Notes: generated by a model from the sequence alone, not told the origin. A DNA stretch of 63,993 nucleotides, filler included, from Stramenopiles sp. TOSAG23-2 (GCA_900128395.1; 7 parts of 7 records of this genome joined end to end with filler, not necessarily neighbours in it); one strand, 5' to 3'. Counted from the first letter of the whole stretch, positions 9,235-60,479 are shown. Made by a program: numbers and translations.

Positions 9235-9334
9235 NNNNNNNNNNNNNNNNNNNNNNNNNNNNNNNNNNNNNNNNNNNNTTAATTAATTAANNNNNNNNNN
9301 NNNNNNNNNNNNNNNNNNNNNNNNNNNNNNNNNN
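9235..9334. other. Artificial contig-joining linker
   Basis: N44-TTAATTAATTAA-N44 (stops in all six frames), identical at six places. Confidence 0.99.
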
Positions 9335-18540: not shown

Positions 18541-18640
18541 NNNNNNNNNNNNNNNNNNNNNNNNNNNNNNNNNNNNNNNNNNNNTTAATTAATTAANNNN
18601 NNNNNNNNNNNNNNNNNNNNNNNNNNNNNNNNNNNNNNNN
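18541..18640. other. Artificial contig-joining linker
   Basis: N44-TTAATTAATTAA-N44. Confidence 0.99.
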
Positions 18641-27844: not shown

Positions 27845-27944
27845 NNNNNNNNNNNNNNNNNNNNNNNNNNNNNNNNNNNNNNNNNNNNTTAATTAATTAA
27901 NNNNNNNNNNNNNNNNNNNNNNNNNNNNNNNNNNNNNNNNNNNN
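27845..27944. other. Artificial contig-joining linker
   Basis: N44-TTAATTAATTAA-N44. Confidence 0.99.
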
Positions 27945-29920: not shown

Positions 29921-30283
29921 TATAAATAAAAGAACCAGCCGCCGCCAGGAGGTTTTTTTTTTTATTTTTTTATTAATCTAAGAATTAATCGCTTTTCTTC
30001 TTTATCTTACCAGGTATCTTTTCTTATCGTATCTCTGAGCTCTGAGGCGGGAAATCCACAGGTTAAGGTATTATATGTGATACGACAACAAATGTTTCAG
30101 CGAATACCAGATACCAGAGAACGAAAAGATACAACAACAAGATATATCGAAATTATATATTGATAGAAGTAATATCTCGTAGTACACAGACAACTTTTGT
30201 GTGTGTTTCATTTTTTAAACCACAACTACGTATATATATCACATATATTTTATATAACACAATATATACATTTCAACGACATC

Positions 30284-33200
30284 ATGTCTAGTATTATCAA
30301 TTATTTCGTTCTTGCAGTAGCAGCTTTATCGTTATTGCTTATCACGTGTAACAATGTACATGCTTCTGATACAATAAAACAACCACCTCATATCATTTAC
30401 ATTTTAGCAGATGACTTAGGTTACAATAATGTTGGCATTCAACAACAACGGCATAATACAGAGCAAAACACTTCTGAGGTAAAAACACCAACAATTGATG
30501 AGTTGACAAAAAGTGGTCTAGAGTTATCTAGAATGTATTCGTATAAATATTGTTCACCATCTCGCTCCTCATTTTTATCCGGGAGATTACCGATACACGT
30601 CACACAAAACAATAAAAATAATTTAGTAACAAACCCAGGAGGAGCAGATTTAAGAATGAAACTACTTCCAGAAGTATTAAAAGAACGCTTGAATTATAAA
30701 ACCCATATGGTAGGAAAATGGCATGTTGGTGCTAGATCGACATCGAATTTACCAATTAATCGCGGATTTGATTCACATTTTGGATTTTTAAAAGGTGGAG
30801 AAGATCATTTAAATCAACATTCAGGTGATGCGGGAATTACTTTTGTTGATTTATGGCGTGATCAAAAACCAGCGTTTAATGAAAATGGGACGTTTTCAAC
30901 AATTATATATACAAACGAGGCAGTTAAAATTATAAAGCAACATAGCCATCTTGAAAAAAATAAAGGTACAAAGCAACCGTTATTTATGTTTTTAGCGTAT
31001 CAAGCAACACATACACCATTAGAGGTTCCACCATCATGGAATGTAAAGCCTGTTCCTGATGATACAAAAACAAATGCACGTTCTCATATGAATGCATTAG
31101 TAGAAATTTTAGATTCAGGGGTAAAAAATGTAACTGATGCATTAAAAGAAACTGGAATGTGGGAAAACACTTTATTGATTTTTCAAGCTGATAATGGAGG
31201 ATGGGTAACAGATCCAAGTTTAGGTGGTAACAACTATCCTTTAAGAGGAGGAAAAGTGTCTGATTATGAAGGTGGTGTAAGAAATTTTGCGTTTATCAAT
31301 GGAGGATACATGCCAGATAATTTAAAATCTACCACCTTTTCCGGATTAATGCATATTTGCGATTGGTATGAAACGTTTCAAAACTTAGCGCCAAATTTCA
31401 ATGAAGAAGAAAAGAACAACCACGACCAAATCAACAATGATGTACCACCACTTGATTCCATCAATCAATGGAATTCATTACTTGTTCCAAATGGAGAAAT
31501 ATCAAAACGGCATGAAGTACCATTAGCGTTTTGCACACTTGAAGCACAATGTGATAGTCCAGGTGGTGTATTTCACAGTGTCGGCGATGCTGCGCTCATT
31601 GTTGGGAAATGGAAAATTATTAACGGGACACAAAATAAAATGGGTATATGGCAAGGTCCTTTATATCCAAATGCATCTAGTTTGCCAGCAAATGATGCTG
31701 TTGGTTGTCCAAATGGATGTTTATTTAATATATTTGAGGATCCAGGTGAACGTTTTGAGAAAAAGGAAGAATATCCCGATATATTTAAGAGACTTATGGA
31801 ACGATTAAAATATTACGGTACAACCGTTTATCAAACAAATTATACAGATGCAAAAACTTGTATTGGTGCATCTGAATCTTATAGAATGAATCATGGATTT
31901 TTGGCACCAAGATGTAGTACTGATAATAATGATGAAAATATTGTTAATGAGAATAAAATCGAACGTCTATCATTAGATACTGAACTTCCAAAACCATATG
32001 AATTAAGAACGGAATTTTTAAAAAGTGATTATTCTTTATCCTTGTCGACGTTTCATGCGCCTCGTTTCAGTTGGAAATTGCCACTGTTACCTGGAGATAA
32101 AAATAGAGGAAAAGATCAAGCAGCATATCGTATCATTGTGAGGGAGCGGTATAACACTGGTGTTATTGTATGGGATTCAAACATTGTAAGTTCGAATGCA
32201 TCAAATTTAGTAGAGTATAATGGTGATATGAACTTACTAGTTCCAGACAAATCTTATTCATGGACTGTACAATATTTTTATCAAAATAAAGAAAATGATG
32301 ATGATTTGATTCCATCTGGCATATCATCTACTTCTTCTTTTGATATTGGTTTGATGGTTGAAAAAGATTGGGAAAATGCAAAATGGATTGGTAATGAAAA
32401 CCATCGTTTGATACGTGTAAATGTATTGCCTTTGTCCACTAATATCGTACGTGCACGTGTGCATTTATCTGCGCCAGGTTGTGCTGTTTTAAGTGTAAAT
32501 GGGAAAACACATCCATTTAGTGCAGGAGGTGTCTGCCCATGGACAAATTTTAATAAAACTATTTATTACCAATCATATGACATTTTGAATATGTTGGTCT
32601 TTGAGAAAGATAAAAGTGCAAAAATGGAAAAACAAACCTTTGGATTTATGTTGGGCCATGGTATGTATTACAAATACGGTTTACCCGGAACGCATCCAAC
32701 AATAAAAGTAAAAATTGTGTTGGAGGATGACAAAGGAATGCGTACATTATGTGTTAGTGGTAGTAGCAGTAGTAGCAGCAGCAGAAACAACGCCAATTTA
32801 TGTCATTGGTATGGTACAGAAGGCCCTTATATTTCTGATGATCCATTTGATGGTACAGAAATAGATTGGAACCGTTTACCAGATCAATGGGATACACCAA
32901 TGTTTGATCCTCTTACACGTGGATGGTCATTAGTGCCAACATCATCAAATGTACCATCTAGTAGCGCATTAATTAAAGGAATGGCAATGCCTCCGACAAT
33001 TGATAAAAGAACCTACAAACCTCTTTCGGTAAAGTATTTCAAAAATGAATATGGTGGACCAGTATATGTTTATGATATTGGTACAAACATAGTTGGAACA
33101 TGTTCAATATTGCTGCATTACCAAAAAAAAATAAAAAAAGCTGCTGTAGATAAGGAATTTATGAAGGTAAATAATGCTGCTCCTACAATAGCTTTACGTC

Positions 33201-35011
33201 ATGGTGAAATGCTTTTAAACAATGGTTCTATAAATTTTAATTATTCAGGTCATTCTTCTGGCGTAAAAGCTACATTTCAAAAAGACTTGCATCATTTACC
33301 GACAAATATGAATGAAGGTGAAACAATTCGATTGAGATCTTCCTTCGTTTGGTTTGGTTTCCAATATATATCCGTAGAAATTTCAAATGGTGCAGAGGCA
33401 TATTTCGATGCAAAGGATCTTCAGAATTCAATTGAATGTTATCAAAAATATCCTGATTTTGATGTTAGTGGTGAGTTTTTTGCCAGTGATGATAAGGAAT
33501 CGAATGAAAGTGGTTCAAAATTAAATGCACTTCAAAAGATTATTACAACAAGTCAACTTGGTAACTTGGCAGATTATGCACCTACAGATTGTCCAACTCG
33601 AGAAAAGCATTTTTGGCTTGGTGATTCATTAAGCGTTGCAGAAGAAGCAATGTTAAATTACCATGTTCCAACATTGTTTAATAACTTTTTAAATATTATT
33701 GCCGATGAACAAGGAAATGCAAATGCGGTGACATATGAATGGGATTTTCCAGGAGTTGTTCCTGTATTAACTCATAAATCTTCTTTGTACTCCTCTAAAT
33801 CTATTGCAGGGCCAAATTCTTTTGGGATTACGGATATATCATGGACTGCGGCGTTTCCAATTATATTGAATTGGATGCATCGACATTATGGTGATGTGCA
33901 AATAGTTAAAGATTTGTATGGAAATGCAAAACAATATGTAGATGGTTTATCGAAAGAGGCTAATATATTGTTAAACTCAACATTACCCACATTTTTTATA
34001 TGGGGTGATTGGTGTTCAAATCAAAGTCGCGCTGTTGCTACTCCGGAAACCGGTCCGACTGCTTCAGCATTCAATTACATATTATCATTAGATGCAATGG
34101 CTGATATGGCAAGTGTCTTGGGTAAAGACAACGATTTTGAAAAATATAGCACATTAAGTAAATCATTACGTATTACCTGGGCTAAAACATTTTATAATTC
34201 AAATCATGGTTTATACGGCTATGAAGCTGAAGATGGTTTTGTATCTCAAACGTTGACATCAGCTTCATTTGTTATGAATAATGTTGTTCCAAATGGTGTG
34301 TCTTATGAAAATGTATTAAACAACTACCAGAAGGATATTATTGATATACGTAAAAACCACGTCACATTTGGTTCAGTTGGGGCAAAAAACTTTTTCCAAC
34401 AAACTTCTAAAAATTCAGGCCATGATATAGCGTTAAATGTTGCATTGCAAGATACTTATCCTTCATTTGGTTATTGGATAAAACAAGGTGCAACAAGTTG
34501 TTGGGAGGACTGGACCGGTTATGCAGATCCTACCCATCCTCCTCAACCTACCCATAATCATATATTTTTATGCGGTGGACTTGGAGAATGGTTGTATACC
34601 AATGTTGGTGGAATCGCATTACCTGAAGAAATTGCATTTAAGAAAATTTTAATTGCACCAAAAATTTCTGAACTTGTTGGTCCTGCATCAGTACGTACAA
34701 GTTTTAATTCTCCATATGGTTTAGTGAAAATGGAATGGAATCGAACACTTAGTGCTGGTGAGATTAAAGCACTAAGTATTTCTATAAATTTGCCTAAATA
34801 TGGTACGATAATTATTCCATTAAATAATAATAATAGGAAAGAAGAATATCAACTTATGGAGAGCGAACGTGTAATTTTTAAACATGGAAAGTTTATTGGA
34901 CCAAATATTATACCTGGCATTATGAATGTAGTTTATGATAATTCAAGTAATAGCTTGATTGTTGAATGTAGTAGAGGTATTTATATGTTTGATTTGTTAT
35001 CATCAGCTTAA
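30284..35011 (+). CDS. Secreted arylsulfatase (S1, ARSB-like) fused to GH78 alpha-L-rhamnosidase, ~1575 aa
   Basis: Signal peptide. Sulfatase motifs ILADDLG, CSPSR (FGly), GKWH, DNGG and PLRGGK. GH78 motifs PRFSW, YDIGTNIVG, GFQY, PTDCPTRE..WLGD, WGDW, GATSCWEDW and HNH. One uninterrupted ORF. Confidence 0.93.
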   Translation: MSSIINYFVLAVAALSLLLITCNNVHASDTIKQPPHIIYILADDLGYNNVGIQQQRHNTEQNTSEVKTPTIDELTKSGLELSRMYSYKYCSPSRSSFLSGRLPIHVTQNNKNNLVTNPGGADLRMKLLPEVLKERLNYKTHMVGKWHVGARSTSNLPINRGFDSHFGFLKGGEDHLNQHSGDAGITFVDLWRDQKPAFNENGTFSTIIYTNEAVKIIKQHSHLEKNKGTKQPLFMFLAYQATHTPLEVPPSWNVKPVPDDTKTNARSHMNALVEILDSGVKNVTDALKETGMWENTLLIFQADNGGWVTDPSLGGNNYPLRGGKVSDYEGGVRNFAFINGGYMPDNLKSTTFSGLMHICDWYETFQNLAPNFNEEEKNNHDQINNDVPPLDSINQWNSLLVPNGEISKRHEVPLAFCTLEAQCDSPGGVFHSVGDAALIVGKWKIINGTQNKMGIWQGPLYPNASSLPANDAVGCPNGCLFNIFEDPGERFEKKEEYPDIFKRLMERLKYYGTTVYQTNYTDAKTCIGASESYRMNHGFLAPRCSTDNNDENIVNENKIERLSLDTELPKPYELRTEFLKSDYSLSLSTFHAPRFSWKLPLLPGDKNRGKDQAAYRIIVRERYNTGVIVWDSNIVSSNASNLVEYNGDMNLLVPDKSYSWTVQYFYQNKENDDDLIPSGISSTSSFDIGLMVEKDWENAKWIGNENHRLIRVNVLPLSTNIVRARVHLSAPGCAVLSVNGKTHPFSAGGVCPWTNFNKTIYYQSYDILNMLVFEKDKSAKMEKQTFGFMLGHGMYYKYGLPGTHPTIKVKIVLEDDKGMRTLCVSGSSSSSSSRNNANLCHWYGTEGPYISDDPFDGTEIDWNRLPDQWDTPMFDPLTRGWSLVPTSSNVPSSSALIKGMAMPPTIDKRTYKPLSVKYFKNEYGGPVYVYDIGTNIVGTCSILLHYQKKIKKAAVDKEFMKVNNAAPTIALRHGEMLLNNGSINFNYSGHSSGVKATFQKDLHHLPTNMNEGETIRLRSSFVWFGFQYISVEISNGAEAYFDAKDLQNSIECYQKYPDFDVSGEFFASDDKESNESGSKLNALQKIITTSQLGNLADYAPTDCPTREKHFWLGDSLSVAEEAMLNYHVPTLFNNFLNIIADEQGNANAVTYEWDFPGVVPVLTHKSSLYSSKSIAGPNSFGITDISWTAAFPIILNWMHRHYGDVQIVKDLYGNAKQYVDGLSKEANILLNSTLPTFFIWGDWCSNQSRAVATPETGPTASAFNYILSLDAMADMASVLGKDNDFEKYSTLSKSLRITWAKTFYNSNHGLYGYEAEDGFVSQTLTSASFVMNNVVPNGVSYENVLNNYQKDIIDIRKNHVTFGSVGAKNFFQQTSKNSGHDIALNVALQDTYPSFGYWIKQGATSCWEDWTGYADPTHPPQPTHNHIFLCGGLGEWLYTNVGGIALPEEIAFKKILIAPKISELVGPASVRTSFNSPYGLVKMEWNRTLSAGEIKALSISINLPKYGTIIIPLNNNNRKEEYQLMESERVIFKHGKFIGPNIIPGIMNVVYDNSSNSLIVECSRGIYMFDLLSSA

Positions 35012-46482: not shown

Positions 46483-46484
46483 AT

Positions 46485-49400
46485 TATTATAAGATTGTGG
46501 TAAAACCAAAAAAAATGAAACCAAAAAAATCCAAAATTAAAGTCAACCAAGAGGAGTCCATAGAATTGATTGGTGATTCATTTTCTGTTACTCAAGGAAT
46601 TTACAACGATCTCCTGGACGAGCGGGTATTACACAGCGGAGGCAAAGGTGGTGAGAAACATGGAGCACATCATATTGAATATAAGGATAACTTGGAGCTT
46701 GTATTACTGTGCAAATCTGGGCCACCCGAAGCACCAATGGACTATGTAGACCCTAAAGGTGGGACGAAAAGAAGGAGACTAGATACTTCTACTGCAATTG
46801 TCTTAAAAGGGCCAGCTCCAACTGTGGATACACCTAAAGCAGACGATTGCTATACAGTACATGTAGAACATTGTCAGCAATGTGATCATTACGAGGATAG
46901 ATCCAACAAAAATTACTGTGGAGACCATGATAACGGTGAATTCTATTCCGTAGTACACTTTGAAGATGATGAAGGCCTAATGAAATCTGAAAAATTTCGA
47001 TGTTCATTTACAGACGTAGAACATTGTAACAATGCGCAAATAGAAACTACAACGAGCTTGGTTATGGATGGCTTGGTTGAGCATAAAGAAAAAGTATCGT
47101 ATATAGACGGTGACTCTGGTAGATCCAGTGAAACATCGACTCTAGAAGTTGAAGACACCTCTTGGGAGAAATGGTTAGACAAAAACGGAAATGAAAGAAG
47201 AAGAAGGCTTGTAACAACCGTAGACAACGGTGATTCTCACGACAAAAACGATTGGCACAGTGCAACGCCAAAGGAACAAATTAAACAACTAGGTTACGCA
47301 ATTGATGAACATAATGATGTAATTACTGATGACTCAAAAAAAGATCCTGTAATTATATCTCACGAAGAGGGTACACAAAAAGGTGAAGATGAACTGCATA
47401 TGAAGGATACATTTTCACACATTCATGGTTGTATTGGAGTACCAGAAGACAAGTGGGAAGAAGAAGGTGAGAAAAGACGATTAAAAAAGCAAACACTCCT
47501 TGGACAATCATCAAAATTCCATAAAAGTAAAACTATGCGAAAATTAAAAAGAAACGATATTAAGTCTCCTTTTGAATTGATGCATGCCCATTTTCATGCC
47601 CGTAAGTTGAATAGTGCAGAAGATATTCATCTATATGAAACAGGCGACACTCGTATCTGTGAAATTTGTGAACATTATAAAGCAGAAAGTGAAAAGATGC
47701 AAGATGCATTGCACGAAATTGAAACAATAAAAACGGAGGAGGAAGAAAAATTTGAAGAAGAACGGTTTGGAGAAGAGATAGGGTTACCCGAAACGAAAGG
47801 CAAAGGAGAGGAGAAGGATATGGGTTTAGACTATATCGATGATATGAGAGACAGGAAAAAACGTCGTTTGACACATAAAAAAAGATTATTAGCAGTTCAT
47901 GCAAAAAGAAAGAGTATTAAAAAAATCGGGCATAGACGTTTACGTGTTCGCAGATTAAGGAAAAGATTGAAACGAAAAGCTGTGCATCATCTTACTCACC
48001 ATGCGCGTAAGACTGGGCGAAAATTAGACGTAGTTGTCGATGGGTTGGAAGGAGATGAAAGGTTTGATGTGACAGTGGAACCATACAGAGAAGAGATGAT
48101 GAAAGAATTAGGCCTAGAAAAAACAATCGGCAAGGAAATGAAAGCAACAAGTGATTTAAAAAAAGAAATAGAAGCAAATATTGTAGTTATTGAAAAGGAA
48201 TTGGAAGATTTTTATAAAATGTTTCCGGAAACATCTGATGCAAAACGGTTACTGATGAATACGGTTATGACTGAGAGTGAAAAAATTGCGGAAAAAAACG
48301 AATATATACGTGACCAAATGATGAATCTAGAAGCTCATAATTTGGAACTTCAATATGCAAAAGATGAGGAACAGCACCTTGAAGACATTGTAGTTGATAT
48401 AAAATATGCTGAAGATATTTTAGAAAAGGTCAAAATGGAAATTTCAGGAAGTGCAACTGGAGGCAGACGTTTAAATTCAAAGTCACTAAAAGAAACCGTG
48501 GAACAGTGTAACTTAAGCTTAGATAATATGTATAAACAAACCACTTTGATCAAAGATGAATACGTTTGTGATTACGTATTAGGTGTAGGCGAAATTGATA
48601 GTCGCGGCAACGTAGTTAGTACGCCACGTGAGTCATTTGGTTCCCACGAAAATCCTGATTTATTTGATAAGCAACTTGAATGTTGTGTAGCGGAGGAAAA
48701 TTTACATGAACTTGAAGATATTGTAACTCGTGCAGAGGCTGAGATTGAATCTTATAAAACGGAACCAGAAAGTTGCGAATATTTGGAATCCCAAAAAAAA
48801 CCAAATGAAGACGGCGGGAAAGAATATACGTACTATACAGATATTATTCTTCCAAGGGGAACTACAGCAAGAAGACTAAGATATGACGATAAGGACAAAC
48901 CAAAAACAGAAATGTCTGATCAGTTGGAAATTGATATCATCGAAGGTTTAACCGAAACACCCAAAACTGACTCAACTTTAATGGATAACATTCACAAGCC
49001 AGCTTACGAGGAGAAAAGTAAATATACGGAAGAAGCAAAAGTAGAAGAGTATTCAAGTGCTGAATGGCAAGATGAATTTGAAAGATGTGCCTGCGAAACT
49101 GCAGTCCAAACTACTTTGTTCCCCAAAGATGGAAAAGGTGATGCTAAATGCATGGTTCATTGCTCCATTGATTATCCTAAATTCGTCCAAAGTGAAATCA
49201 AGCTGGTCACAGACAGTTGTGAACAGGTGATTGAGACATCGTATAAATTGGATGGGACAGGTCAATATAAGCTTGCAAATAATGATATGGATTCATGTTT
49301 AGCAGGAAAAGCTAATGATGGTAGTGTGAGTTCTACTACTAGACGTCGACTTATCCGTAGTCGACGCAGACTTAAGGCAATGCATGATGCAGATGGTAAC

Positions 49401-52400
49401 CTTATATACCCTGCTGGGGCATCTGTGGATAACGGTTCTGTGAAAACGACTGCTACTGGTGCTGTTGCACCGAGTGATGCAGACGGTAAACCGGCTGCAT
49501 ATAACAAGCATGTGTCTGATAATGCCGGGGTGCAATGTGTCAATGGAGAGCCAGAAAATCCACCTGGATGCAGTCTCACAACAGTTACGCCAGAAAGTGC
49601 TGGAAACATGTTTACAGTTATCTGTGAGCGTAATATTCCTGGCATAAGTGATTTGACAACTTTACCTCCAGATACTATTGTAGATAAAGTTTCCTTTGTT
49701 TCTTCCATGAGCGATGGTGCAATTTACGTAGGGAAGTCATTCGAGGTCCATCAAAAAACGCAAGATCGCATGTGTGTTACCAGAGATAATGATGGTACCA
49801 TCCAAGGACATGTAGAATTAGAAGTTACTGTTTCTATTCCGATATCTACAGTACAAGCAGCCGTGGATCAATGCCTTCTTATGAGTCCTAGAGCAGACAG
49901 GGATAGAGCGGCATTTTGCTGTCCAGGTGGAAAAGTTGAAGTGCAAAGACTACCAGGGAAAGACCAGATGAATTGTAAGATTAATGAAGCCGATTATCTC
50001 AGCTCCACCGAAGATAGGACCTTTACCGTATTTGGCCATGTGGAAAATGAAATTGAAACTGAGGAGACACTATTGGTAATAAAACAAGTTCCAGATTCAG
50101 GAAATAAATTTCATGTTAGCGAAGGAGTATATTTCACATTCGAATTTGAGCAACGTGTCTTTTTGGAAACCTGTACCGTGGAACCAGCATATGCCTCAAT
50201 CGTTGCACATTCGAACGAAGAAACTTACGCACTTTCCCAAGATCCTGCTAATACAGTTGGCGGTGATGTTACATCAGATCCATGTACTATTAATACAAAA
50301 ACGCTCTGCGCAACGGTACAGAGCTGTAAGTGGAACGACAATACGGATCAGTGCATTTCAAAAATCCCTACTTCAACCTTAACCGTAACAGATACTGCTC
50401 CCGTTGCCCCTTGTGAAGACGGTAAAGCATATTGCACAAGTGGTCCAAACGCAAATCTCTGCGTAACTTTGTGTAATAACAGGGATTACCCTGAAAGAGG
50501 TTGCGGGGAGAATAAAGCGACAGTTTTTGTTCCGATGAATCCTGATACTTTAATGCCGGGATATCAAAAATGTGTTAAACCAGGTCCTATTCAATGTGCT
50601 ACTAATAGTAAATACTACTGCCCAGGAAATAATTCTGTAGGAGAATGTGTCGAAACTTGTGGAAGTTGTACCAATGCTAATTATCCTTCTGGATTAATAT
50701 CCGATTCTATAAGTGGGGTTTGTAAAGAACCGAGTCTTGCTTTGTGCGCCGCACAGGGTCGGATTTACTGTGATATTACGAAGAACTGCGTAGATTATTG
50801 TGCATACGATACATGCGGTAGGTACAGTCATCAAGTTTATGAAAAAAATGTGACTGAAGGAGACAATAATATGTTTTATCCATCATGCGAAGTAATAGAC
50901 CAGGATTATTGTAATTCAAATGATATGAAATTTTGCCCTGGTGACGACGTAAATGAACCTAGCTGTGTTGCAGTATGTTCTGTAGAAACTGGCAACGGGG
51001 CGTATGAAAAGTGCAATAGAAGGCCAGCAAATGATGGCGGTGTGTGTAAATCTCCTACAGACTTGTCCAGCGGGTATTATTGCTTGGGAACGGGGGTAAC
51101 AAACAATTGTAATGGTTGTACATATGCTGGTGTGAGTCACACTGAGGAAAATGCGACAACTGGACTCTGTGAAATGGCTACAGTTCCTGCCGACCCACCA
51201 CAAAATTTGTTTTATTGTGAGATCGAAGAATGGTACGATACTGACACTTTTAAATCAAAAAAGATCCTTGTAGAAAGTTGTTGGGATAATTGTACATTGA
51301 GCTATAAAGAAAAGGATTGGAATAAATATATTGCAGATCCTGGCACACATAGGTGTCTTCAACCAAGTGTTACAACTTGCCAAGAAATGAATTTAGTTTA
51401 TTGTCCTGGTGGCGATACTTTACCATACGGAGCATGTGTTCCATCATGCGAAGATTGTTATATCACTGTGAATGATATAGACACAAGTGGTGGAGTCATC
51501 TACGAACCACAATTTATAAATGAATTTATAAATGGTGATTATACCGACATTTGTATTAGTGAAGAAACTGCAAAACATAATTGCTTTAATAATGGTAAAC
51601 ATTGGTGTGGAGTTTTGGGCAAATGTATGCCAAACTGTAATTCATGTATTGATGCTGAATCCCAAACTGCATTCAAACTTAATGTAATTGCAGGTTCTGG
51701 GTATGAATGCGAGATTTCTTGTAACGCAGATGAAACTTATTGTCCTTCAACAGGGGAATGCGTTAAATGTGAAGCAAGTTATTGCAAAAACAATTGTGAT
51801 CACTGTTGGGATTACCCAATGCAAGAAACGATAAGTGGTGCGCCTTATGGATCCACTCAATGCAAAACAGCTTCCGAAGAAAGTTGCCGAAGTGAAGGTA
51901 AGGACTATTGTGAGATTGACAAGACATGTAAAGATCGTTACCATGAGAAAGATGGTACCGGAAATACATGTTTAAGTTGCGGTGCAAATGGTACCATGTG
52001 GTGGTCACCAGGTCACATTGGAAAATGCACAAATAGAGCTGCTGCTATCACTCAATGCAATGGAATGAATTATTTGAGATTGCCGGAAGGTAAAGCACAA
52101 TGTGTTCCTAATTGTGCAAACCACCACTACTGTGCAGACATATCTGACACTACCACGTGTCAAAATCTTGTAAATCCCGCTACCGGTACCGATGCTATTT
52201 GTGATATTGCGCAAGCAACGGCCGCCGAAACACATGTTGTAACAACAGTAAATGCTGGTGTGAACTCTACCGCTGCTGGTACAGTTGTTTCTAGTAGTGG
52301 CTCCGGTATGGGCTATGGCAGTGGCACTACTTCTGGCAGTGGCACTACTTCTGGCAGTGGCACTACTTCCGGCAGTGGCACTGGTTCCGGCAGTGGCACT

Positions 52401-53108
52401 GGTTCCGGCAGTGGCACTGGTTCTAATTCATGTCCATCTGGTATGTCGTATTCAGATTGCTATCAATACGATATGTACGATCCTGGTTATAACTATCCGG
52501 ACCCTCACAATGATGATCCTGCATCAGGATTTGGTTCTGGCTCTGGTTCCGGTGGATCTAGCAACAGTGGCGGTAGACGACGCCGTCTTCAAGCAAGAAA
52601 TGGCAGAAGACTAGCTAGTGGTGATAATCAAATGCCCTCAGCAAAATTTACAGGTTTAATATCACCTGTGAAATATGATGACCCTGAACCAATTGATTGC
52701 ACGAAGTATGAGGAAGTTGCACTAAGTGTAACTTGCAATGAAGATGGTCACCTACCAGAATGTGTTTGTCCACACAAAAGTATCAATGACGTGCCATTGA
52801 CTTATGAAGAGCAGCCAAAGCCATTCTGCCATTCAAAAAACATGCCCGTTGATAATTGTGCCATAGATTGTGGATGTGAAAGAGGAACAGATGTAACAGA
52901 TGGTGTATATACATGCATAAACTTGGATACACAAACGTACGCCTGTGACGATCCTATGGCATTAAATTACGATAGTTGTGCATCTTTACCAAGTGAGGCG
53001 GAAAGATTATATCGCTGTGATTACCACTATGCGGATGCACATCTTACTCCTATGAATGTTCCATTGTATACGAACAATACATACAATCTTACTGCTACCA
53101 GGTTGTAA
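46485..53108 (+). CDS. Giant (>2200 aa) Cys-rich, probably extracellular protein with many RRL motifs; 5' end runs off the contig
   Basis: Uninterrupted 6.6-kb ORF, open to the linker. Acidic N-terminal half split by RRL/RKL/KRL motifs, a ~1000-aa Cys-rich repeat block, a GSGT linker and a Cys-rich tail. Confidence 0.9.
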   Translation, partial: YYKIVVKPKKMKPKKSKIKVNQEESIELIGDSFSVTQGIYNDLLDERVLHSGGKGGEKHGAHHIEYKDNLELVLLCKSGPPEAPMDYVDPKGGTKRRRLDTSTAIVLKGPAPTVDTPKADDCYTVHVEHCQQCDHYEDRSNKNYCGDHDNGEFYSVVHFEDDEGLMKSEKFRCSFTDVEHCNNAQIETTTSLVMDGLVEHKEKVSYIDGDSGRSSETSTLEVEDTSWEKWLDKNGNERRRRLVTTVDNGDSHDKNDWHSATPKEQIKQLGYAIDEHNDVITDDSKKDPVIISHEEGTQKGEDELHMKDTFSHIHGCIGVPEDKWEEEGEKRRLKKQTLLGQSSKFHKSKTMRKLKRNDIKSPFELMHAHFHARKLNSAEDIHLYETGDTRICEICEHYKAESEKMQDALHEIETIKTEEEEKFEEERFGEEIGLPETKGKGEEKDMGLDYIDDMRDRKKRRLTHKKRLLAVHAKRKSIKKIGHRRLRVRRLRKRLKRKAVHHLTHHARKTGRKLDVVVDGLEGDERFDVTVEPYREEMMKELGLEKTIGKEMKATSDLKKEIEANIVVIEKELEDFYKMFPETSDAKRLLMNTVMTESEKIAEKNEYIRDQMMNLEAHNLELQYAKDEEQHLEDIVVDIKYAEDILEKVKMEISGSATGGRRLNSKSLKETVEQCNLSLDNMYKQTTLIKDEYVCDYVLGVGEIDSRGNVVSTPRESFGSHENPDLFDKQLECCVAEENLHELEDIVTRAEAEIESYKTEPESCEYLESQKKPNEDGGKEYTYYTDIILPRGTTARRLRYDDKDKPKTEMSDQLEIDIIEGLTETPKTDSTLMDNIHKPAYEEKSKYTEEAKVEEYSSAEWQDEFERCACETAVQTTLFPKDGKGDAKCMVHCSIDYPKFVQSEIKLVTDSCEQVIETSYKLDGTGQYKLANNDMDSCLAGKANDGSVSSTTRRRLIRSRRRLKAMHDADGNLIYPAGASVDNGSVKTTATGAVAPSDADGKPAAYNKHVSDNAGVQCVNGEPENPPGCSLTTVTPESAGNMFTVICERNIPGISDLTTLPPDTIVDKVSFVSSMSDGAIYVGKSFEVHQKTQDRMCVTRDNDGTIQGHVELEVTVSIPISTVQAAVDQCLLMSPRADRDRAAFCCPGGKVEVQRLPGKDQMNCKINEADYLSSTEDRTFTVFGHVENEIETEETLLVIKQVPDSGNKFHVSEGVYFTFEFEQRVFLETCTVEPAYASIVAHSNEETYALSQDPANTVGGDVTSDPCTINTKTLCATVQSCKWNDNTDQCISKIPTSTLTVTDTAPVAPCEDGKAYCTSGPNANLCVTLCNNRDYPERGCGENKATVFVPMNPDTLMPGYQKCVKPGPIQCATNSKYYCPGNNSVGECVETCGSCTNANYPSGLISDSISGVCKEPSLALCAAQGRIYCDITKNCVDYCAYDTCGRYSHQVYEKNVTEGDNNMFYPSCEVIDQDYCNSNDMKFCPGDDVNEPSCVAVCSVETGNGAYEKCNRRPANDGGVCKSPTDLSSGYYCLGTGVTNNCNGCTYAGVSHTEENATTGLCEMATVPADPPQNLFYCEIEEWYDTDTFKSKKILVESCWDNCTLSYKEKDWNKYIADPGTHRCLQPSVTTCQEMNLVYCPGGDTLPYGACVPSCEDCYITVNDIDTSGGVIYEPQFINEFINGDYTDICISEETAKHNCFNNGKHWCGVLGKCMPNCNSCIDAESQTAFKLNVIAGSGYECEISCNADETYCPSTGECVKCEASYCKNNCDHCWDYPMQETISGAPYGSTQCKTASEESCRSEGKDYCEIDKTCKDRYHEKDGTGNTCLSCGANGTMWWSPGHIGKCTNRAAAITQCNGMNYLRLPEGKAQCVPNCANHHYCADISDTTTCQNLVNPATGTDAICDIAQATAAETHVVTTVNAGVNSTAAGTVVSSSGSGMGYGSGTTSGSGTTSGSGTTSGSGTGSGSGTGSGSGTGSNSCPSGMSYSDCYQYDMYDPGYNYPDPHNDDPASGFGSGSGSGGSSNSGGRRRRLQARNGRRLASGDNQMPSAKFTGLISPVKYDDPEPIDCTKYEEVALSVTCNEDGHLPECVCPHKSINDVPLTYEEQPKPFCHSKNMPVDNCAIDCGCERGTDVTDGVYTCINLDTQTYACDDPMALNYDSCASLPSEAERLYRCDYHYADAHLTPMNVPLYTNNTYNLTATRL
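52315..52424 (+). repeat. 18-bp coding tandem repeat (GSGTTS x3, GSGTGS x3)
   Basis: GGCAGTGGCACTACTTCT / GGCAGTGGCACTGGTTCC units. Confidence 0.9.
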
Positions 53109-54491
53109 CGTGTATTGATGGTAACTATGCTAGCGAATTATATAATGCAGCATTCTGGTCTTCTTTGTACGTAGACTGATTCATTCATAGTGGCACTTAC
53201 CGGACAAAAAAATCACCCTTATATTACATGTTAAATGTTTTACCAGAGAAAAGGAGTGACAGAAATCTCTGATTTCATATTTCCGCGTTATATATATATA
53301 TTTACGTGCATGTATATATACACGAGATTCGTGTTTATATATACATACAATACATATATATGTATCATGCACACAGAAATTGTGAAAAATCAACAACACA
53401 AAATTTAAAAGAAAAAGAAAAAATTAGAATTTTAAATATTAAAAAAAAGGGGTATGTATATTAATACTTTCTGAAAGAAAGTGTCTGTGATACCAGACTA
53501 TGGGTATTATACATAGCATAAATAATTAAATTTAAAAAAAATACCACATCACACAATATCCATATAATATTATAAATATATTATATGCGTTAAATTACAA
53601 AACACACATCATTTGATGCCAAGAATAATTGATAAGGGAGGAGAGAGTCTTTTAAAAAAAAATGTTTTGTATAAAAATATTAATCTCATTATTAAAAAAA
53701 TTTTATGTCACACAGTGAAAAAATCCTTCTTTTTTAACACACGATGAAAAAAAATATTTTATTTATGTGTTCTCATAAAATACGTTTGGTATTACTTTGT
53801 AATATTCGGTGCATCTATTAATACCACTAGCACAAAAGGCAGTTGTTGTCCCGGCAACTTGATGGCCTAGCTCCTAGCCAAATATTATAATATCTTAATC
53901 TATCTCACAGTATATTGTCAATAATTCCAATAATAACAAGAAGACAACTTGTCATATTTGGAATATAACCCCAGCCTTTTTTTTTAAGGCAGATTTCAAC
54001 AAAAAGGCCACACTAACACTGTATACACAGTACTATAGTACACAGTACACAGTACTAGTACACAGTGTAGCTCTAGTGTAGTCTATGCGTGTAGTCGTGT
54101 ATAGTGTATGATGATAGTAGCAACTAATTCAAAAAAACTATTATAAAACATCATCAAACCATTGTTGTGCCATTATAATTATATATAATAATACAACTTT
54201 CTAATAATAATGTAATAACAACGATGATTTTTTTTCAAACAACAACAACTATATACTATATTAATATTATGATCTATGATACTAATAAAGCTGTTGTTAA
54301 TATTATATACCATAGCACAATGCAATTAATAAGTTCCATTGCATGTATCAAAAACTTGTATTGTTATCATAAACTTGCATTGTCTAAAGTTATATTGATT
54401 ATATTGAAATAATAAAACAACACACTTTCTTGCAAGACACAATAATTATAACACATACATAAAACATATAATAATACATAAATATACTACC

Positions 54492-55319
54492 ATGCCCAGG
54501 GATAGGTCTAAAGCTCGGGAATTACAAGAAAGGAAAAAGAAAGGTTCAGTTGATGAGCTTCAGTTGAGATTAGAAAAAGAAAGCGAAGAGCTGAAACAGT
54601 CACGATTAAATCAGAAAGCAAAGATACAACGTATCAAAGATAGAAAGAAACAAGCCTTCTTAGAAAAAGTGGAAAAGGATCTTCCGAATTTATATCTCGG
54701 GATCTTCGTACCATGTATCATGGCCGTTATAACAATTTGTACAGCAACAGTTGCTACGAGCATTGGTGGTAATGGTTGTAACGTTGGATTAAACGTAGGG
54801 TTTCCATTTACTTTGCAAGTTTATTTGTGGTGTTCCTCGATTGTAGCATATACATTCTTGTTCGGTTTATCGATGATGTTTATAGGTTCTGAATTGGAAC
54901 TTCCAACTTGCTGTGGTAAATTACCATGCCCGGATTGTCGGTGTAAAAAAATGTCATCCGTTTTGAAATTTTATGGATTCATTTTTTTCTTTGCACTTCT
55001 TTTTAATATTTTCGGATTAGTTGCATTCTTAGAAGCTGGTAGTTGTGTCGATAATCCAAGTGCAGACAATTACGAACCGCTACTTTATTACTCCGCACTT
55101 CTTCAAGTCATATTCTTTTGGGGGGCATTATTTGTATTAATAATATTTGGTATAGATACGGCCATTAAAAGAACAAAACAAGCAGCAAAACAACTTGAAG
55201 CTAAAAGGCATGCGGAGATGGAAAAAAGAGTCGCAGAAGAATATGATGGTTTTGAAGGTGAAGAGGGTGAATATGAAGAAGGTGAATATGAAGAGGAAGA
55301 GGAAGATGGCAAAAAGTAA
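54492..55319 (+). CDS. Uncharacterised four-TM membrane protein with charged termini and Cys-containing loops
   Basis: 275-aa ATG ORF with four hydrophobic segments, a PTCCGKLPCPDCRC loop and an acidic tail. Confidence 0.8.
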   Translation: MPRDRSKARELQERKKKGSVDELQLRLEKESEELKQSRLNQKAKIQRIKDRKKQAFLEKVEKDLPNLYLGIFVPCIMAVITICTATVATSIGGNGCNVGLNVGFPFTLQVYLWCSSIVAYTFLFGLSMMFIGSELELPTCCGKLPCPDCRCKKMSSVLKFYGFIFFFALLFNIFGLVAFLEAGSCVDNPSADNYEPLLYYSALLQVIFFWGALFVLIIFGIDTAIKRTKQAAKQLEAKRHAEMEKRVAEEYDGFEGEEGEYEEGEYEEEEEDGKK

Positions 55320-57662: not shown

Positions 57663-60479
57663 ATGGATCCGAGGAATGCAAACAAACAGCTTGATGAGTC
57701 TATCAAAGATAATCGCAAAGAATTAGCGAAAGGAAATCACGAACAGCTTGATACTCGTATCGAAAATTACGAGTTTCTCGAAAGACTCGGGAAAGGGGGT
57801 CAGGGAACAGTGAATCTTTGCAAAAGAAAAACAGATGGTGAAAGATATGCTATTAAGCACTTCTCAATTGATAAACAGCAGTTCTCAATTGATAAACAGC
57901 GAGCAGTAAAAGAAGCGGAGCTTTTGATGTTACCACCTGAGCATGATAATATTGTGCGTTGTTTTGGTAGCTGGAGGCAAGACGATACGTTCTACATGCT
58001 AGAAGAACATTTAAAAGGGATGGATTTACTTGAATATCATCAAACACACGGACAAAGTATATCACAAACAGAGTTATTGTCAATTATAATTGGTAGTTTA
58101 AGTGGCGTTGCGCATTTACATGATTATAATATATGGCATAGAGACTTAAAACTCGAGAACCTATTTCGTACTGATTCTGGTACGATCAAGTTGTTTGATT
58201 TAGGTTTAGGATTACATGCAAGTGGTGAATTTACAAAGTCATTAGTAGGTACACCAATTTATGCATCGCCAGAACTAGTAAATTTAATGTACAACAAAGA
58301 TTCTTCCGGATATTCCAGTAAACATGATATGTTTCAACTTGCAGTAATATATTTTATTCTTGTTGCTGGTTATCACCCTTTTGTACCCAAAACAGGCAAT
58401 GTCAAATTGAGAAATACAAAAACATTTGAAAATATTCGCGGTAAAGAAATTCGCCTTCGACAAAACAAAACCATACCGTACGATCAACGAATCCTGAATT
58501 TGATTAAGAAATGTGGGGCAAAAGATCCAAAAGCACGCCCAACTGCTAAGGAAGCTTTAGGTATGGCAATTGATATTTCCAAAGAAATTGAAACTGAAGG
58601 ACGGATTGAAGGTGCAAAGCAGGTGAGCGTTCTTGTAGAAAATTATTTTTTGAGCTGTTTGAAGGACAAATTTATCGGTTGGGTAAAAAGTTTGAAAAAA
58701 GATATCAAGTTTGAAACCATGAAACGCGAAAAAAAGGTGAACGAGACGCGAAAAAAGGTGAACGAGAAGCTTGTAAGAGAAGAATTGAAGAAGAAAAAAC
58801 TAGCATTAGAGGGTTTACGTCAGCAAGTCATGGAAGATCAGAGAAACCTACAAGAACAGCGGGATCAATTGAGGAAAAGAGAAAAACAACTACAGGAAAA
58901 GGAAGAGAAAGTTAAAAGAGACGATTTAAAATTGAAAAAAACACTTTGGAATGCAAAATGGAATGCTAATAATATTATCCATGTTACTAATATCCAAACA
59001 TTCATTCGAAAAGTACTTGCTACAAGGCGATACAGAAAAGATCTACATGATATCATTGTTATACAAAGATTTATTCGTAAGAAATTGGTCCAACAAAAAT
59101 GGTATGCAAATCAAATTCCAAAAATTGAAAATCGATATGCTGAACATTATGCAAATTCGGTAAGACATGCCTTCGATTCTAAAGTTGCAAAAGAAAGTAA
59201 TATTATTTTGCAAAATCGTAATAATGAACTTGCGTTGGAAAAAGTGCAAACGGAGAATCACAACCATGCACTTTTATTAAATATGGAACAACTACAGGAA
59301 GAGTATGCTACACTTGTACGTAACGTTGAAGGTATCCACAAGGATTTAATTTGTCCCATCACGTTAGAACGTTTCGTTGATCCTGTTATTGCACGTGATG
59401 GATATGTCTATGAAAGTGAAGCAATTCAACAATGGTTTGATAATCACAGGATTTCACCTATGACCAATGGCCCATTAACGGATACAAGATTAACACCATG
59501 TCACAAGATGAAGACGATAGCTCGAGCTTTTGATGATGTTGCAGGAAATAATAATAATGTGCAAGAATTGGATACTCAGTTGAAAGTAGTCCGTGAAAAT
59601 TATCAACGACGTTTCGAACAAAGCGTTAAGAAAAATGAAGATCTTCAAGACAGATTAAATGATTCTAAAAAAATTATTTGTGAACAAACCTTGGAATTAG
59701 CAAGTGAAAAGATAACAATTCAGGAACAAAACGTGGAATTGGCGAGGGAAAAGAAAACAATTGATACACTTCGCTTTGCTGCGAAGCAAAGGGATCGTGA
59801 AATCGAACGCCTAAAAAAAGAGACAAGAGGTAGGCAAACCATTATTAATCAAAATCGTCTTGAAATTGAACGCCTGACTAGTACACTCGGTAATCGTGAA
59901 CTTGATATCAAAAAAAAAGACGACCAAATTAAATCACTTTATCAAAATGTTGGTGCAATGTTATGTAAAAAGGATAGAACATTTGGTCCAATCACACGCA
60001 AAAAAAGTATTGTAAGGAAAAAGATTGGAGATAGTCAATATGCAGGCCAAATGGAAAGTGGTAAACGCCATGGATTTGGTGCAAATACATATGCTAATGG
60101 CAATACTTATGTTGGTGAATGGAAAGATGATAAGAAAGATGGAAACGGTGCATATACATATGCTAATGGCAATGTATATGTTGGTGAATGGAAAGATGAT
60201 AAGAGAAATGGAAAAGGTAAATTGACAGATAAAAATGGAAAATTAATCCATGAAGGGACGTGGAAGACATATGCTAGTGGTAATGTATATGTTGGTGACT
60301 TTAAAGATGATAAATTCCATGGAAAAGGTACATTTACATGGAATAGTGGATCGCTTAAAGGTGAGGTATATGTTGGTGAATGGAAAAATAATAAACAAAA
60401 TGGATATGGTAAACACACTAATGCAGATGGTTCTATCTATCATGATGGAATGTGGAAAGATTGTGAACGAGTGCGATGA
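57663..60479 (+). CDS. Ser/Thr kinase - coiled coil - 2x IQ - U-box - coiled coil - MORN repeats
   Basis: Kinase GKGGQGTV, AIK, HRDLKLEN, DLG, GTPIYASPE. IQ motifs IQTFIRKVLATRRY and IQRFIRKKL. U-box LICPITLERFVDPV..DGYVYE..AIQQW..SPMT. MORN repeats YVGEWKDDKKDGNG. Confidence 0.92.
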   Translation: MDPRNANKQLDESIKDNRKELAKGNHEQLDTRIENYEFLERLGKGGQGTVNLCKRKTDGERYAIKHFSIDKQQFSIDKQRAVKEAELLMLPPEHDNIVRCFGSWRQDDTFYMLEEHLKGMDLLEYHQTHGQSISQTELLSIIIGSLSGVAHLHDYNIWHRDLKLENLFRTDSGTIKLFDLGLGLHASGEFTKSLVGTPIYASPELVNLMYNKDSSGYSSKHDMFQLAVIYFILVAGYHPFVPKTGNVKLRNTKTFENIRGKEIRLRQNKTIPYDQRILNLIKKCGAKDPKARPTAKEALGMAIDISKEIETEGRIEGAKQVSVLVENYFLSCLKDKFIGWVKSLKKDIKFETMKREKKVNETRKKVNEKLVREELKKKKLALEGLRQQVMEDQRNLQEQRDQLRKREKQLQEKEEKVKRDDLKLKKTLWNAKWNANNIIHVTNIQTFIRKVLATRRYRKDLHDIIVIQRFIRKKLVQQKWYANQIPKIENRYAEHYANSVRHAFDSKVAKESNIILQNRNNELALEKVQTENHNHALLLNMEQLQEEYATLVRNVEGIHKDLICPITLERFVDPVIARDGYVYESEAIQQWFDNHRISPMTNGPLTDTRLTPCHKMKTIARAFDDVAGNNNNVQELDTQLKVVRENYQRRFEQSVKKNEDLQDRLNDSKKIICEQTLELASEKITIQEQNVELAREKKTIDTLRFAAKQRDREIERLKKETRGRQTIINQNRLEIERLTSTLGNRELDIKKKDDQIKSLYQNVGAMLCKKDRTFGPITRKKSIVRKKIGDSQYAGQMESGKRHGFGANTYANGNTYVGEWKDDKKDGNGAYTYANGNVYVGEWKDDKRNGKGKLTDKNGKLIHEGTWKTYASGNVYVGDFKDDKFHGKGTFTWNSGSLKGEVYVGEWKNNKQNGYGKHTNADGSIYHDGMWKDCERVR

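Follow-up and report, generated by a model that had tools for sequence, protein, structure and literature searches.

Recurrent Arg-Arg-Leu motifs in a giant, predicted type II secretory protein of a marine eukaryote

We analysed a stretch of 63,993 nucleotides, filler included, from Stramenopiles sp. TOSAG23-2 (GCA_900128395.1), hereafter called the window, one contig of which carries most of a gene for a giant protein of about 2548 amino acids (aa) in which the tripeptide Arg-Arg-Leu (RRL) occurs up to 14 times. The excess of the motif, the near-invariant Leu, its conservation in place, its first appearance about 30 residues after a predicted membrane anchor and the conserved sizes of the modules between the sites point to selection on R-[R/K]-L as a short linear motif of a secretory precursor. 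As endoproteolysis is the known function of this tripeptide in a secretory setting, we hold, with slightly better than even confidence, that the protein is made as a type II secretory proprotein and that a protease of the RXL/TEXEL (Toxoplasma export element) type matures it at its R-[R/K]-L sites. From these features we infer cleavage itself, the kind of enzyme responsible, the exact position of the cut and the formation of an extracellular or surface structure by the products. The gene is real, intronless and expressed, and it stems from an AT-rich, uncultured marine eukaryote.

Recurrence and conservation of the motif

The open frame in the window, P0001, extends over 46485-53105 (2207 codons) and provides the residue numbers used below unless another protein is named. 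An earlier note on this DNA had described the product as a giant polyprotein carrying 12 RRL and about six RKL or KRL motifs in non-random places, and the count was recovered at the places named: RRL at aa 97, 240, 331, 460, 484, 489, 661, 796, 954, 961, 2033 and 2041, together with three RKL and three KRL. Two more RRL lie upstream of the window frame. None of 5000 shuffles of P0001 attained 12 RRL (mean 0.18, maximum 3). Leu followed an Arg-Arg run in 12 of 13 cases (the exception being NRRP), corresponding to a binomial P of 9e-15 at the protein's own Leu frequency, compared with 6 of 29 runs in the 23 other open reading frames (ORFs) of the window (11,270 aa; Fisher P = 1.8e-5). Both the Arg and the Leu codons vary among the 12 sites, and the recurrence is therefore not a DNA repeat. 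With regard to the neighbouring residues, an extra Arg precedes 5/12 RRL and a Lys 2/12 (KRRRL, RRRRL, TRRRL, SRRRL), Arg directly follows Leu at 3/12, and no preference for E, Q or D was seen two residues past Leu. The earlier note had also stressed that RRL is missing from the large Cys-rich block; this is true (aa 964-2032) but uninformative, because Arg is so scarce there (22 in 1070 aa) that only 0.01 RRL would be expected.

Conservation was judged mainly against P0035, a full-length orthologue of 2464 aa which is about 39-42% identical to P0001 overall (34% over aa 17-965, 42% in the Cys block) and which by itself displays a similar bias, with Leu after 11 of its 17 Arg-Arg runs. Half of the RRL sites (aa 97, 240, 331, 460, 954 and 2033, with 240 shifted by one column) were kept in place in P0035, whereas fully conserved tripeptides make up 7.9% of the two proteins overall (binomial P = 1.5e-4). 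The first part of an expectation in the earlier note, that RRL positions would be conserved while their flanks diverge, largely held. Arg was likewise conserved more often inside the motifs (16/24) than elsewhere (18/62; P = 0.0027). Among the other motifs, P0035 has RRL in place of RKL352 and KRL493 and retains RKL373 and RKL512. The RRRL that precedes the last Cys module aligned in P0001, P0013, P0035, P0040, P0004 and P0008, representing three lineages with identities down to 35-39%, and about 40 residues on either side of it could not be aligned; the linker in front of it is Gly/Ser/Thr-rich in P0001, acidic in P0035 and of yet another kind in P0008. In close variants (at least 80% identity) each covered RRL was kept except that at aa 796 (for example 11/11 at both 460 and 484), while the KRL sites appeared looser (kept in 5/10 at aa 493 and 2/7 at aa 587). 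The sites outside the basic stretch described below are as follows.

46773..46781, + strand: RRL at aa 97 (KRRRLD); conserved in 6/6 close variants, P0035 and P0040; predicted coil, in a block with a predicted local distance difference test (pLDDT) value of 24
47202..47210, + strand: RRL at aa 240 (RRRRLV); conserved in 3/3 close variants; RRRRL in P0035 and P0040, one column off
47475..47483, + strand: RRL at aa 331 (EKRRLKKQT); conserved in 6/6 close variants; RRL in P0035, RKL in P0040
48465..48473, + strand: RRL at aa 661 (GGRRLNS); lineage-specific, in 5/5 close variants; gap in P0035 and P0040
48870..48878, + strand: RRL at aa 796 (TARRLRY); unstable, lost in 2/2 close variants, namely P0014 and P0039, as well as in P0023; not present in P0035 or P0040
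49344..49373, + strand: paired RRL at aa 954/961 (TTRRRLIRSRRRLKA), directly preceding the 1072-aa Cys-rich block
52581..52613, + strand: RRRRL (aa 2033) followed by RRL (aa 2041) (GGRRRRLQARNGRRLAS), flanked by the linker and the C-terminal module

Of the paired sites, RRL954 is RRRL in both P0035 and P0040, and RRL961 has become RRWL. P0011, a distant relative, has KKRRRL near its called N-terminus, 5' of its Cys repeats, but not aligned opposite aa 954/961. RRRRL2033 is RRRL or RRRRL in P0035, P0040, P0004, P0036, P0008 and P0013, and RRL2041 was seen only in the close variant P0013. In the strain of about 90% identity represented by P0014, P0039 and P0023, TTARRLRYDDKDKP is swapped for a longer, acidic RKRY... 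variant; as the RRL at aa 796 is replaced there, one site is polymorphic within the species complex.

Gene boundaries, predicted topology and modules

The gene sits on the contig at 46483-55648, whose end (46483) cuts the frame on its 5' side. RNA contigs of X8, X14 and X15 all diverge from the window 5' of 46532 and share one common 30-nt loose end, which reads PMGDEFCDQ in frame. The same residues are found in the database fragments P0015, P0024, P0027 and P0030, which are 93-95% identical to P0001 where they overlap it. The DNA contigs behind P0024 and P0027 (5.2 and 7.0 kb) carry the frame unbroken across the position in question. Since the frame is uninterrupted in this DNA and the RNA agrees, 46483-46531 is an assembly artefact and not an intron. 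Codons 1-16 of P0001 derive from it, and the N-terminal YYKIVVKPKKMKPKKS of the earlier reading, which was taken from these bases, has to be discarded. P0024 supplies 357 further upstream residues, giving a whole protein of about 2548 aa.

46483..46531, no strand: artefactual contig end, 49 bases, matching neither transcripts nor other DNA-derived copies
46532..53108, + strand: coding sequence, 5'-truncated, residues ~358-2548 plus the stop codon at 53106-53108, no intron; supported by the open frame, RNA cover and the orthologues P0035/L001
53109..53390, + strand: probable 3' untranslated region, a weak hint, where RNA contigs end and the DNA contig continues

The RNA contigs end at 53390 (X8), 53370 (X14) and 53353 (X15), and a DNA contig of X5 reaches 53573; the assignment of a probable 3' untranslated region is based on the RNA contigs stopping while this DNA contig runs on. 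RNA cover was close to zero at 53521-54438, where X5 DNA contigs do give cover. Two joints in X5 DNA (46541>53410 and 47218>48853) were rejected as repeat or foreign matches, with sides of 21 letters and one contig each. A scan of 53000-54600 for bacterial promoters and terminators gave only the level of shuffled sequence and is irrelevant to a eukaryote. Colinear RNA contigs covered the frame in three polyA metatranscriptome runs, and no joint was found in any RNA run. At least half of the sampled words of the stretch were present in 20 of the 24 public runs listed, 11 of these 20 being RNA on record; the runs listed come from 11 studies and comprise small DNA runs, seawater metagenomes and polyA metatranscriptomes.

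P0024 and P0035 have a common start, consisting of a hydrophilic head of about 99 aa, one hydrophobic segment and a basic stalk. The protein has no hydrophobic segment other than this one (P0024 aa 100-122); the 15 residues preceding it contain five Lys/Arg, and the 15 following it have a net charge of 0. Because the single hydrophobic segment is internal and basic on its N-terminal side, the sequence predicts a type II signal anchor, with all RRL sites and Cys-rich modules on the lumenal or extracellular side. The part encoded in the window, with 112 Cys and 10 N-x-S/T sequons, fits such a placement. The earlier note had looked to a signal peptide on the recovered N-terminus; no cleavable one was found by hydropathy in P0024 or P0035, an absence that the note had named as refuting its reading, but the secretory route is still supported by the predicted anchor. 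The first RRL (P0024 aa 155-157) lies 32 residues past the anchor and is followed by RKL and RRL, and all three post-anchor motifs of the stalk (SRRRLG, RKRKLT and TLRRLQ) are kept in P0035. The head contains a loop, DRDGDGEISLLE (P0024 aa 68-79; DKDGDGEISLLE in P0035), which we take to fit the canonical EF-hand loop pattern. Pfam EF-hand_6, EF-hand_1 and EF-hand_5 scored on the head with E values of 0.04-0.1 and 12.6-14.1 bits, below the cut-offs of about 25, and an Atlas search with P0024 returned hypothetical, EF-hand-bearing clusters mostly from diatoms (best score 0.86), which we treat as a weak lead.

The pieces obtained by cutting P0024/P0001 and P0035 in silico after each RRL included several pairs of similar size and Cys number.

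255 aa, against 266 aa in P0035; Cys 12/12
143 aa, against 145 aa in P0035; Cys 6/8
91 aa, against 87 aa in P0035; Cys 1/3
1072 aa, against 1042 aa in P0035; Cys 79/80
164 aa, against 168 aa in P0035; Cys 12/12

Most pieces are acidic (isoelectric point, pI, 4.3-5.5) and are interspersed with short ones of pI 12. The modules between the RRL sites differ from one another and are not repeats of one unit. The N-terminal half is also predicted to contain long helical, coiled-coil-like segments. The term polyprotein used in the earlier note finds no support here in its strict sense. The main features along the protein are given below.

47853..48029, + strand: basic, His-rich stretch, aa 457-515, with RRL 460/484/489, KRL 466/493 and RKL 512
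49530..50384, + strand: non-repeat, mostly beta domain, aa ~1016-1300; conserved with P0035; strands in the AlphaFold2 (AF2) model, pLDDT <50
50412..52184, + strand: ~11 Cys modules, aa ~1310-1900, 45-70 aa each; conserved in P0004, P0008 and P0011
52317..52418, + strand: 18-bp tandem repeat, 5.7 copies, encoding a Gly/Ser/Thr linker; length variable in nature
52614..53105, + strand: C-terminal module, 164 aa, 12 Cys; in P0035 (168 aa, 12 Cys), P0004 and P0008, partly in P0011

A Thr/Ala/Gly-rich linker after the paired RRL leads to the beta domain. The unit of the Cys modules, C-x5-6-[YFW]C-x3-9-C-x3-C-...-C, gave no Pfam match. The variable length of the tandem repeat is illustrated by an 18-nt insertion, equal to one extra repeat unit, at 52297 in contigs of X5 and X15.

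The predicted order of parts would then be a cytosolic head of about 99 aa with one EF-hand-like loop, the anchor, a basic stalk (RRL, RKL, RRL), a 255-aa module with 12 Cys, acidic modules, the basic His-rich helix, helical segments, a 1072-aa block of beta domain and about 11 Cys modules, a fast-evolving disordered linker and the 164-aa module with 12 Cys. If the protein is indeed a proprotein, R-[R/K]-L in the connecting segments would be recognized by an endoprotease acting early in the secretory pathway, for which the diatom RXL protease or an aspartyl protease of the plasmepsin V/ASP5 type, cutting after Leu, are candidates. A cut near the anchor would free the ectodomain from the EF-hand/membrane stub, further cuts would yield, from the N-terminal half, fragments of about 90-260 aa along with short, very basic peptides, and the last cuts would part the large Cys block from the C-terminal module. 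As judged by their Cys-rich, glycosylatable character, assembly of the modules into an extracellular or surface structure is plausible; none of the results supports the earlier note's more specific suggestion of a scale, coat, extrusome or flagellar hair.

Alternative readings and known motif systems

Several observations weigh against maturation at these sites. The recovered N-terminus carries no cleavable signal peptide, and the topology is derived from hydropathy and the positive-inside rule only. P0035 has 3/12 RRL in degenerate form (RRYL for 484, RRI for 489 and RRWL for 961) and has lost another 3/12 (661, 796 and 2041); RRL796 is already gone in the strain of about 90% identity, and the distant P0011 has no RRL before its C-terminal part. 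The divergence of flanks expected in the earlier note was a trend only, with a flank identity of 0.30 at the six conserved sites versus 0.39 at random positions (P = 0.064). RRL484 and RRL489 look more like a binding element than a linker, because they lie in a predicted helix that is conserved above average (flank identity 0.53-0.57 versus 0.39). Finally, 11 of the 14 [RK][RK]L sites in the N-terminal half fell in 10-residue blocks of pLDDT 21-43 in the AF2 model (the exceptions being two sites in the basic helix, 57-64, and RRL661, 51), but the argument that the sites lie in disordered linkers is weak since both AF2 models are of low confidence, with a mean pLDDT of 45.8 for the N-terminal half and 41.0 for aa 1016-2207.

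An alternative which we regard as unlikely but take seriously is that RRL is not cleaved and is conserved as a basic element for docking or binding. Its ligand could be a sorting receptor, a partner protein or a polyanion (a sulfated polysaccharide or silica, for example), and the product would remain a giant type II surface protein in one piece. This reading fits best with the basic His-rich helix at aa 457-515, which has a net charge of +22 in one 50-aa block and holds 6/18 of the [RK][RK]L motifs of the protein. The stretch is predicted to be helical (pLDDT blocks 43-64), and the surroundings of its central motifs are conserved above average, with a flank identity of 0.50-0.57 at RRL484, RRL489 and KRL493 compared with 0.37 at RRL460 and RKL512. 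In P0035 and P0040, RRL460 and RKL512 are kept, 484 is RRYL, 489 is RRI or RRV, and KRL493 is RRL. Binding without cleavage accounts less well for single sites in acidic or Gly/Ser-rich, poorly conserved segments in which the motif alone is kept (GGRRLNS; SGGRRRRLQ), or for sites at the borders of modules of conserved size. Moreover, the first site lies about 30 residues past the anchor, as in the cleaved RXL and PEXEL (Plasmodium export element) proteins described in excerpts of PMC5525289 and PMC4764566.

Less probable still is that the sites are dibasic sites of the kexin/furin type, to be cut between Arg-Arg and Leu by a subtilisin-like convertase of the late Golgi that only favours Leu in the next position. 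The protein would then still be a proprotein with many sites, but with another enzyme and another scissile bond. KR and RR pairs are classical convertase sites, and the extra Arg or Lys in front of some RRL produces R-x-[K/R]-R-like strings. The convertase consensus has no fixed Leu after the basic pair, however, and Arg-Lys is a poor kexin site. Here Leu is near-invariant after the pair, RKL373 and RKL512 are conserved and RKL352 swaps with RRL, several sites lack an upstream basic residue (G-G-R-R-L, T-A-R-R-L), and even the degenerate RRYL and RRWL of P0035 retain Leu. A precedent for convertase processing is a Kex2-processed fungal wall protein mentioned in an excerpt of PMC6258133. That the excess reflects chance or composition, or that the gene is unreal or a chimeric assembly, is rejected by our results: the first 49 contig bases are artefactual and the window chains unrelated contigs, but shuffling never reproduced the count, the codons differ between sites, the motif is kept in orthologues from independent assemblies, the RNA contigs of three runs are colinear and the viral contigs scanned contained no relative.

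We return therefore to maturation by an RXL/TEXEL-type protease and to the systems that it resembles, described here as in the excerpts of the cited papers. In diatom Sin1, a stretch of 30 aa that follows the signal peptide and ends in RRL is apparently removed, by a protease given as unidentified (PMC5525289), and RXL occurs at unit ends in silaffins, frustulins, cingulins and silacidins (PMC4557024, PMC5647440). RXL processing is described there as specific to biosilica proteins (PMC5647440). In Toxoplasma, ASP5 requires R-R-L at P3-P1, cuts after Leu and acts also far from the N-terminus, as in MYR1 (PMC4764566).

The likeness to the diatom RXL precursors (silaffins, silacidins, cingulins, frustulins, silicanin-1 and SAPs) is that the tripeptide is often exactly RRL (PMC5525289, PMC5647440, PMC4557024), that it lies about 30 residues past the segment for targeting to the endoplasmic reticulum (ER) and, in the diatom proteins, again at internal unit ends, to which the RRL at module borders may correspond, and that those proteins, as far as these excerpts describe them, are secretory, often acidic or very basic and partly membrane-bound. 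The RRL protein differs in having a predicted signal anchor in place of a cleavable signal peptide, in its size of about 2548 aa with up to 14 RRL, and in that its inter-site units are differing folded modules, not tandem repeats. Searches of Pfam and PDB, in which the reference proteins were not compared directly, gave no relation to silaffins, cingulins, silacidins or silicanins, and the RRL protein has no known link to silica; within these searches it is not a member of any silaffin, cingulin or silicanin family.

It resembles TEXEL/PEXEL substrates in the R-R-L, which is strictly required there at P3-P1 with little constraint past the scissile bond, and in the position of the motif both soon after the ER signal and internally (excerpt of PMC4764566). 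Those effectors belong to intracellular parasites and usually have one site, in contrast to roughly a dozen sites in a protein of a free-living planktonic protist, and the E, Q or D in fifth position of PEXEL (RxLxE/Q/D) is not the rule here, whereas the R-R-L of TEXEL (RRLxx) is found. Multi-site proproteins of the kexin/furin type are comparable as secretory precursors with several basic sites and separate products, but differ in the two respects discussed above, the nearly invariant Leu and the conserved RKL sites. Oomycete RxLR effectors are secreted stramenopile proteins with an R-x-L motif shortly after the ER signal; each small effector carries one N-terminal motif with Arg as its fourth residue. 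In the RRL protein Arg follows Leu at only a quarter of the RRL sites (3/12). These effectors were also the only result of our literature search for RXL cleavage in stramenopiles and for signal anchors in diatoms, and the literature on mastigonemes offered nothing that could be connected to the RRL protein. Features of viral or organellar polyproteins were lacking, as there is no own protease or other Pfam domain and no repetition of units of one kind.

As far as sequence can tell, the RRL protein thus appears to work like RXL/TEXEL substrates, using a known motif logic in an undescribed family of giant type II proteins, with a site density that has no match in the excerpts of the RXL/TEXEL literature surveyed. 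Because the same tripeptide is kept at module borders and after the anchor in an unrelated family, RRL-type maturation of secreted proteins may be more widespread than model organisms suggest. The RRL protein also offers about ten conserved natural sites for use in substrate assays, which bears on the search for the RXL protease of diatom cell-wall proteins. A bolder possibility, which we consider doubtful, is that diatoms, apicomplexans and this protist share an old system of RRL-directed cutting that acts early in the secretory pathway. The RRL protein would then be the most extreme natural substrate of that system. If so, about a dozen cuts would convert one type II precursor, tethered by a Ca-sensing stub, into a defined collection of parts (acidic, basic and disulfide-rich) from which an undescribed extracellular structure would be built, and the conserved sites would constitute a ready substrate panel for finding the RXL protease.

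The family itself appears narrow. A homologue search with aa 956-2032 against 1.84 billion representatives (E<=0.001) gave 12 proteins, eight of which were partial copies of this protein or of a very close one (78-96% identity), and one of which (P0012) matched in the Gly/Ser/Thr low-complexity linker only. The remaining relatives were P0004 (50% identity), from whose cluster P0035 was obtained, P0008 (39%) and P0011 (30%). A profile scan of metagenomes gave a single locus, L001, encoding P0040, a 93% variant of P0035. The first ORF downstream of the orthologue in L001 (7678-8562) is unrelated to the first ORF 3' of the window gene, and neither of the two L001 ORFs other than that for P0040 had a Pfam match. 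No whole-length homologue was found among proteins of similar length to P0001, and the N-terminal 110 residues of P0015 recovered no protein beyond P0015 itself. Pfam gave no match at E<=1 for P0001 and only sub-threshold EF-hand matches and chance matches to domains of unknown function for P0024, P0035, P0008 and P0011; two alignment profiles of the family had no match among PDB sequences at E<=1, and Foldseek of both AF2 models against PDB had none at E<=0.001. An Atlas search with aa 960-2207 yielded no usable match, and no description of the family was found in the main texts of the literature searched. As Pfam, PDB sequences, Atlas (C-terminal half) and the viral contigs were all blank, the family is undescribed and, within these searches, narrow. 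A family without a Pfam, PDB or Atlas relative that is nevertheless present in 20 of the 24 listed marine runs represents a gap in the annotation of plankton metatranscriptomes.

Other genes in the window

Separate contigs of about 9.2 kb make up the window, joined by the design N44-TTAATTAATTAA-N44, that is two runs of 44 N flanking TTAATTAATTAA at a spacing of about 9.3 kb. Genes on opposite sides of such a joint are unlinked, since they belong to separate contigs.

9235-9334, 18541-18640 and 27845-27944, no strand: contig joints
37114-37213, 46383-46482 and 55649-55748, no strand: contig joints of the same design

The G+C content is 28-39% across the window. The other contigs encode a kinesin, a U-box/Sel1 protein, a kinase/U-box/MORN protein, a fucokinase-type enzyme and a 14-3-3 protein; this gene content indicates a eukaryotic source.

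Downstream of the RRL gene on the same contig, 54492-55319 (+ strand) encodes a product of 275 aa that starts with a Lys/Glu-rich head, contains hydrophobic segments and ends in an acidic tail; it was covered by RNA contigs and belongs to a 90% cluster of 29 members without an informative name. An ORF of 1604 aa at 30197-35011 (+ strand) combines a sulfatase with the complete domain set of a bacterial-type alpha-L-rhamnosidase (GH78-like), an unusual fusion in a eukaryote, and its product could act on sulfated polysaccharides containing rhamnose. Unusual partners are also joined at 12736-15201 (+ strand), where a U-box occurs with Sel1 repeats, and at 57663-60479 (+ strand), where a protein kinase occurs with a U-box and MORN repeats. 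Long homopolymer runs of Asn and Thr were seen at 12736-15201 and 3978-5552, which have 28-30% G+C, compared with 37-39% in the coding part of the RRL contig.

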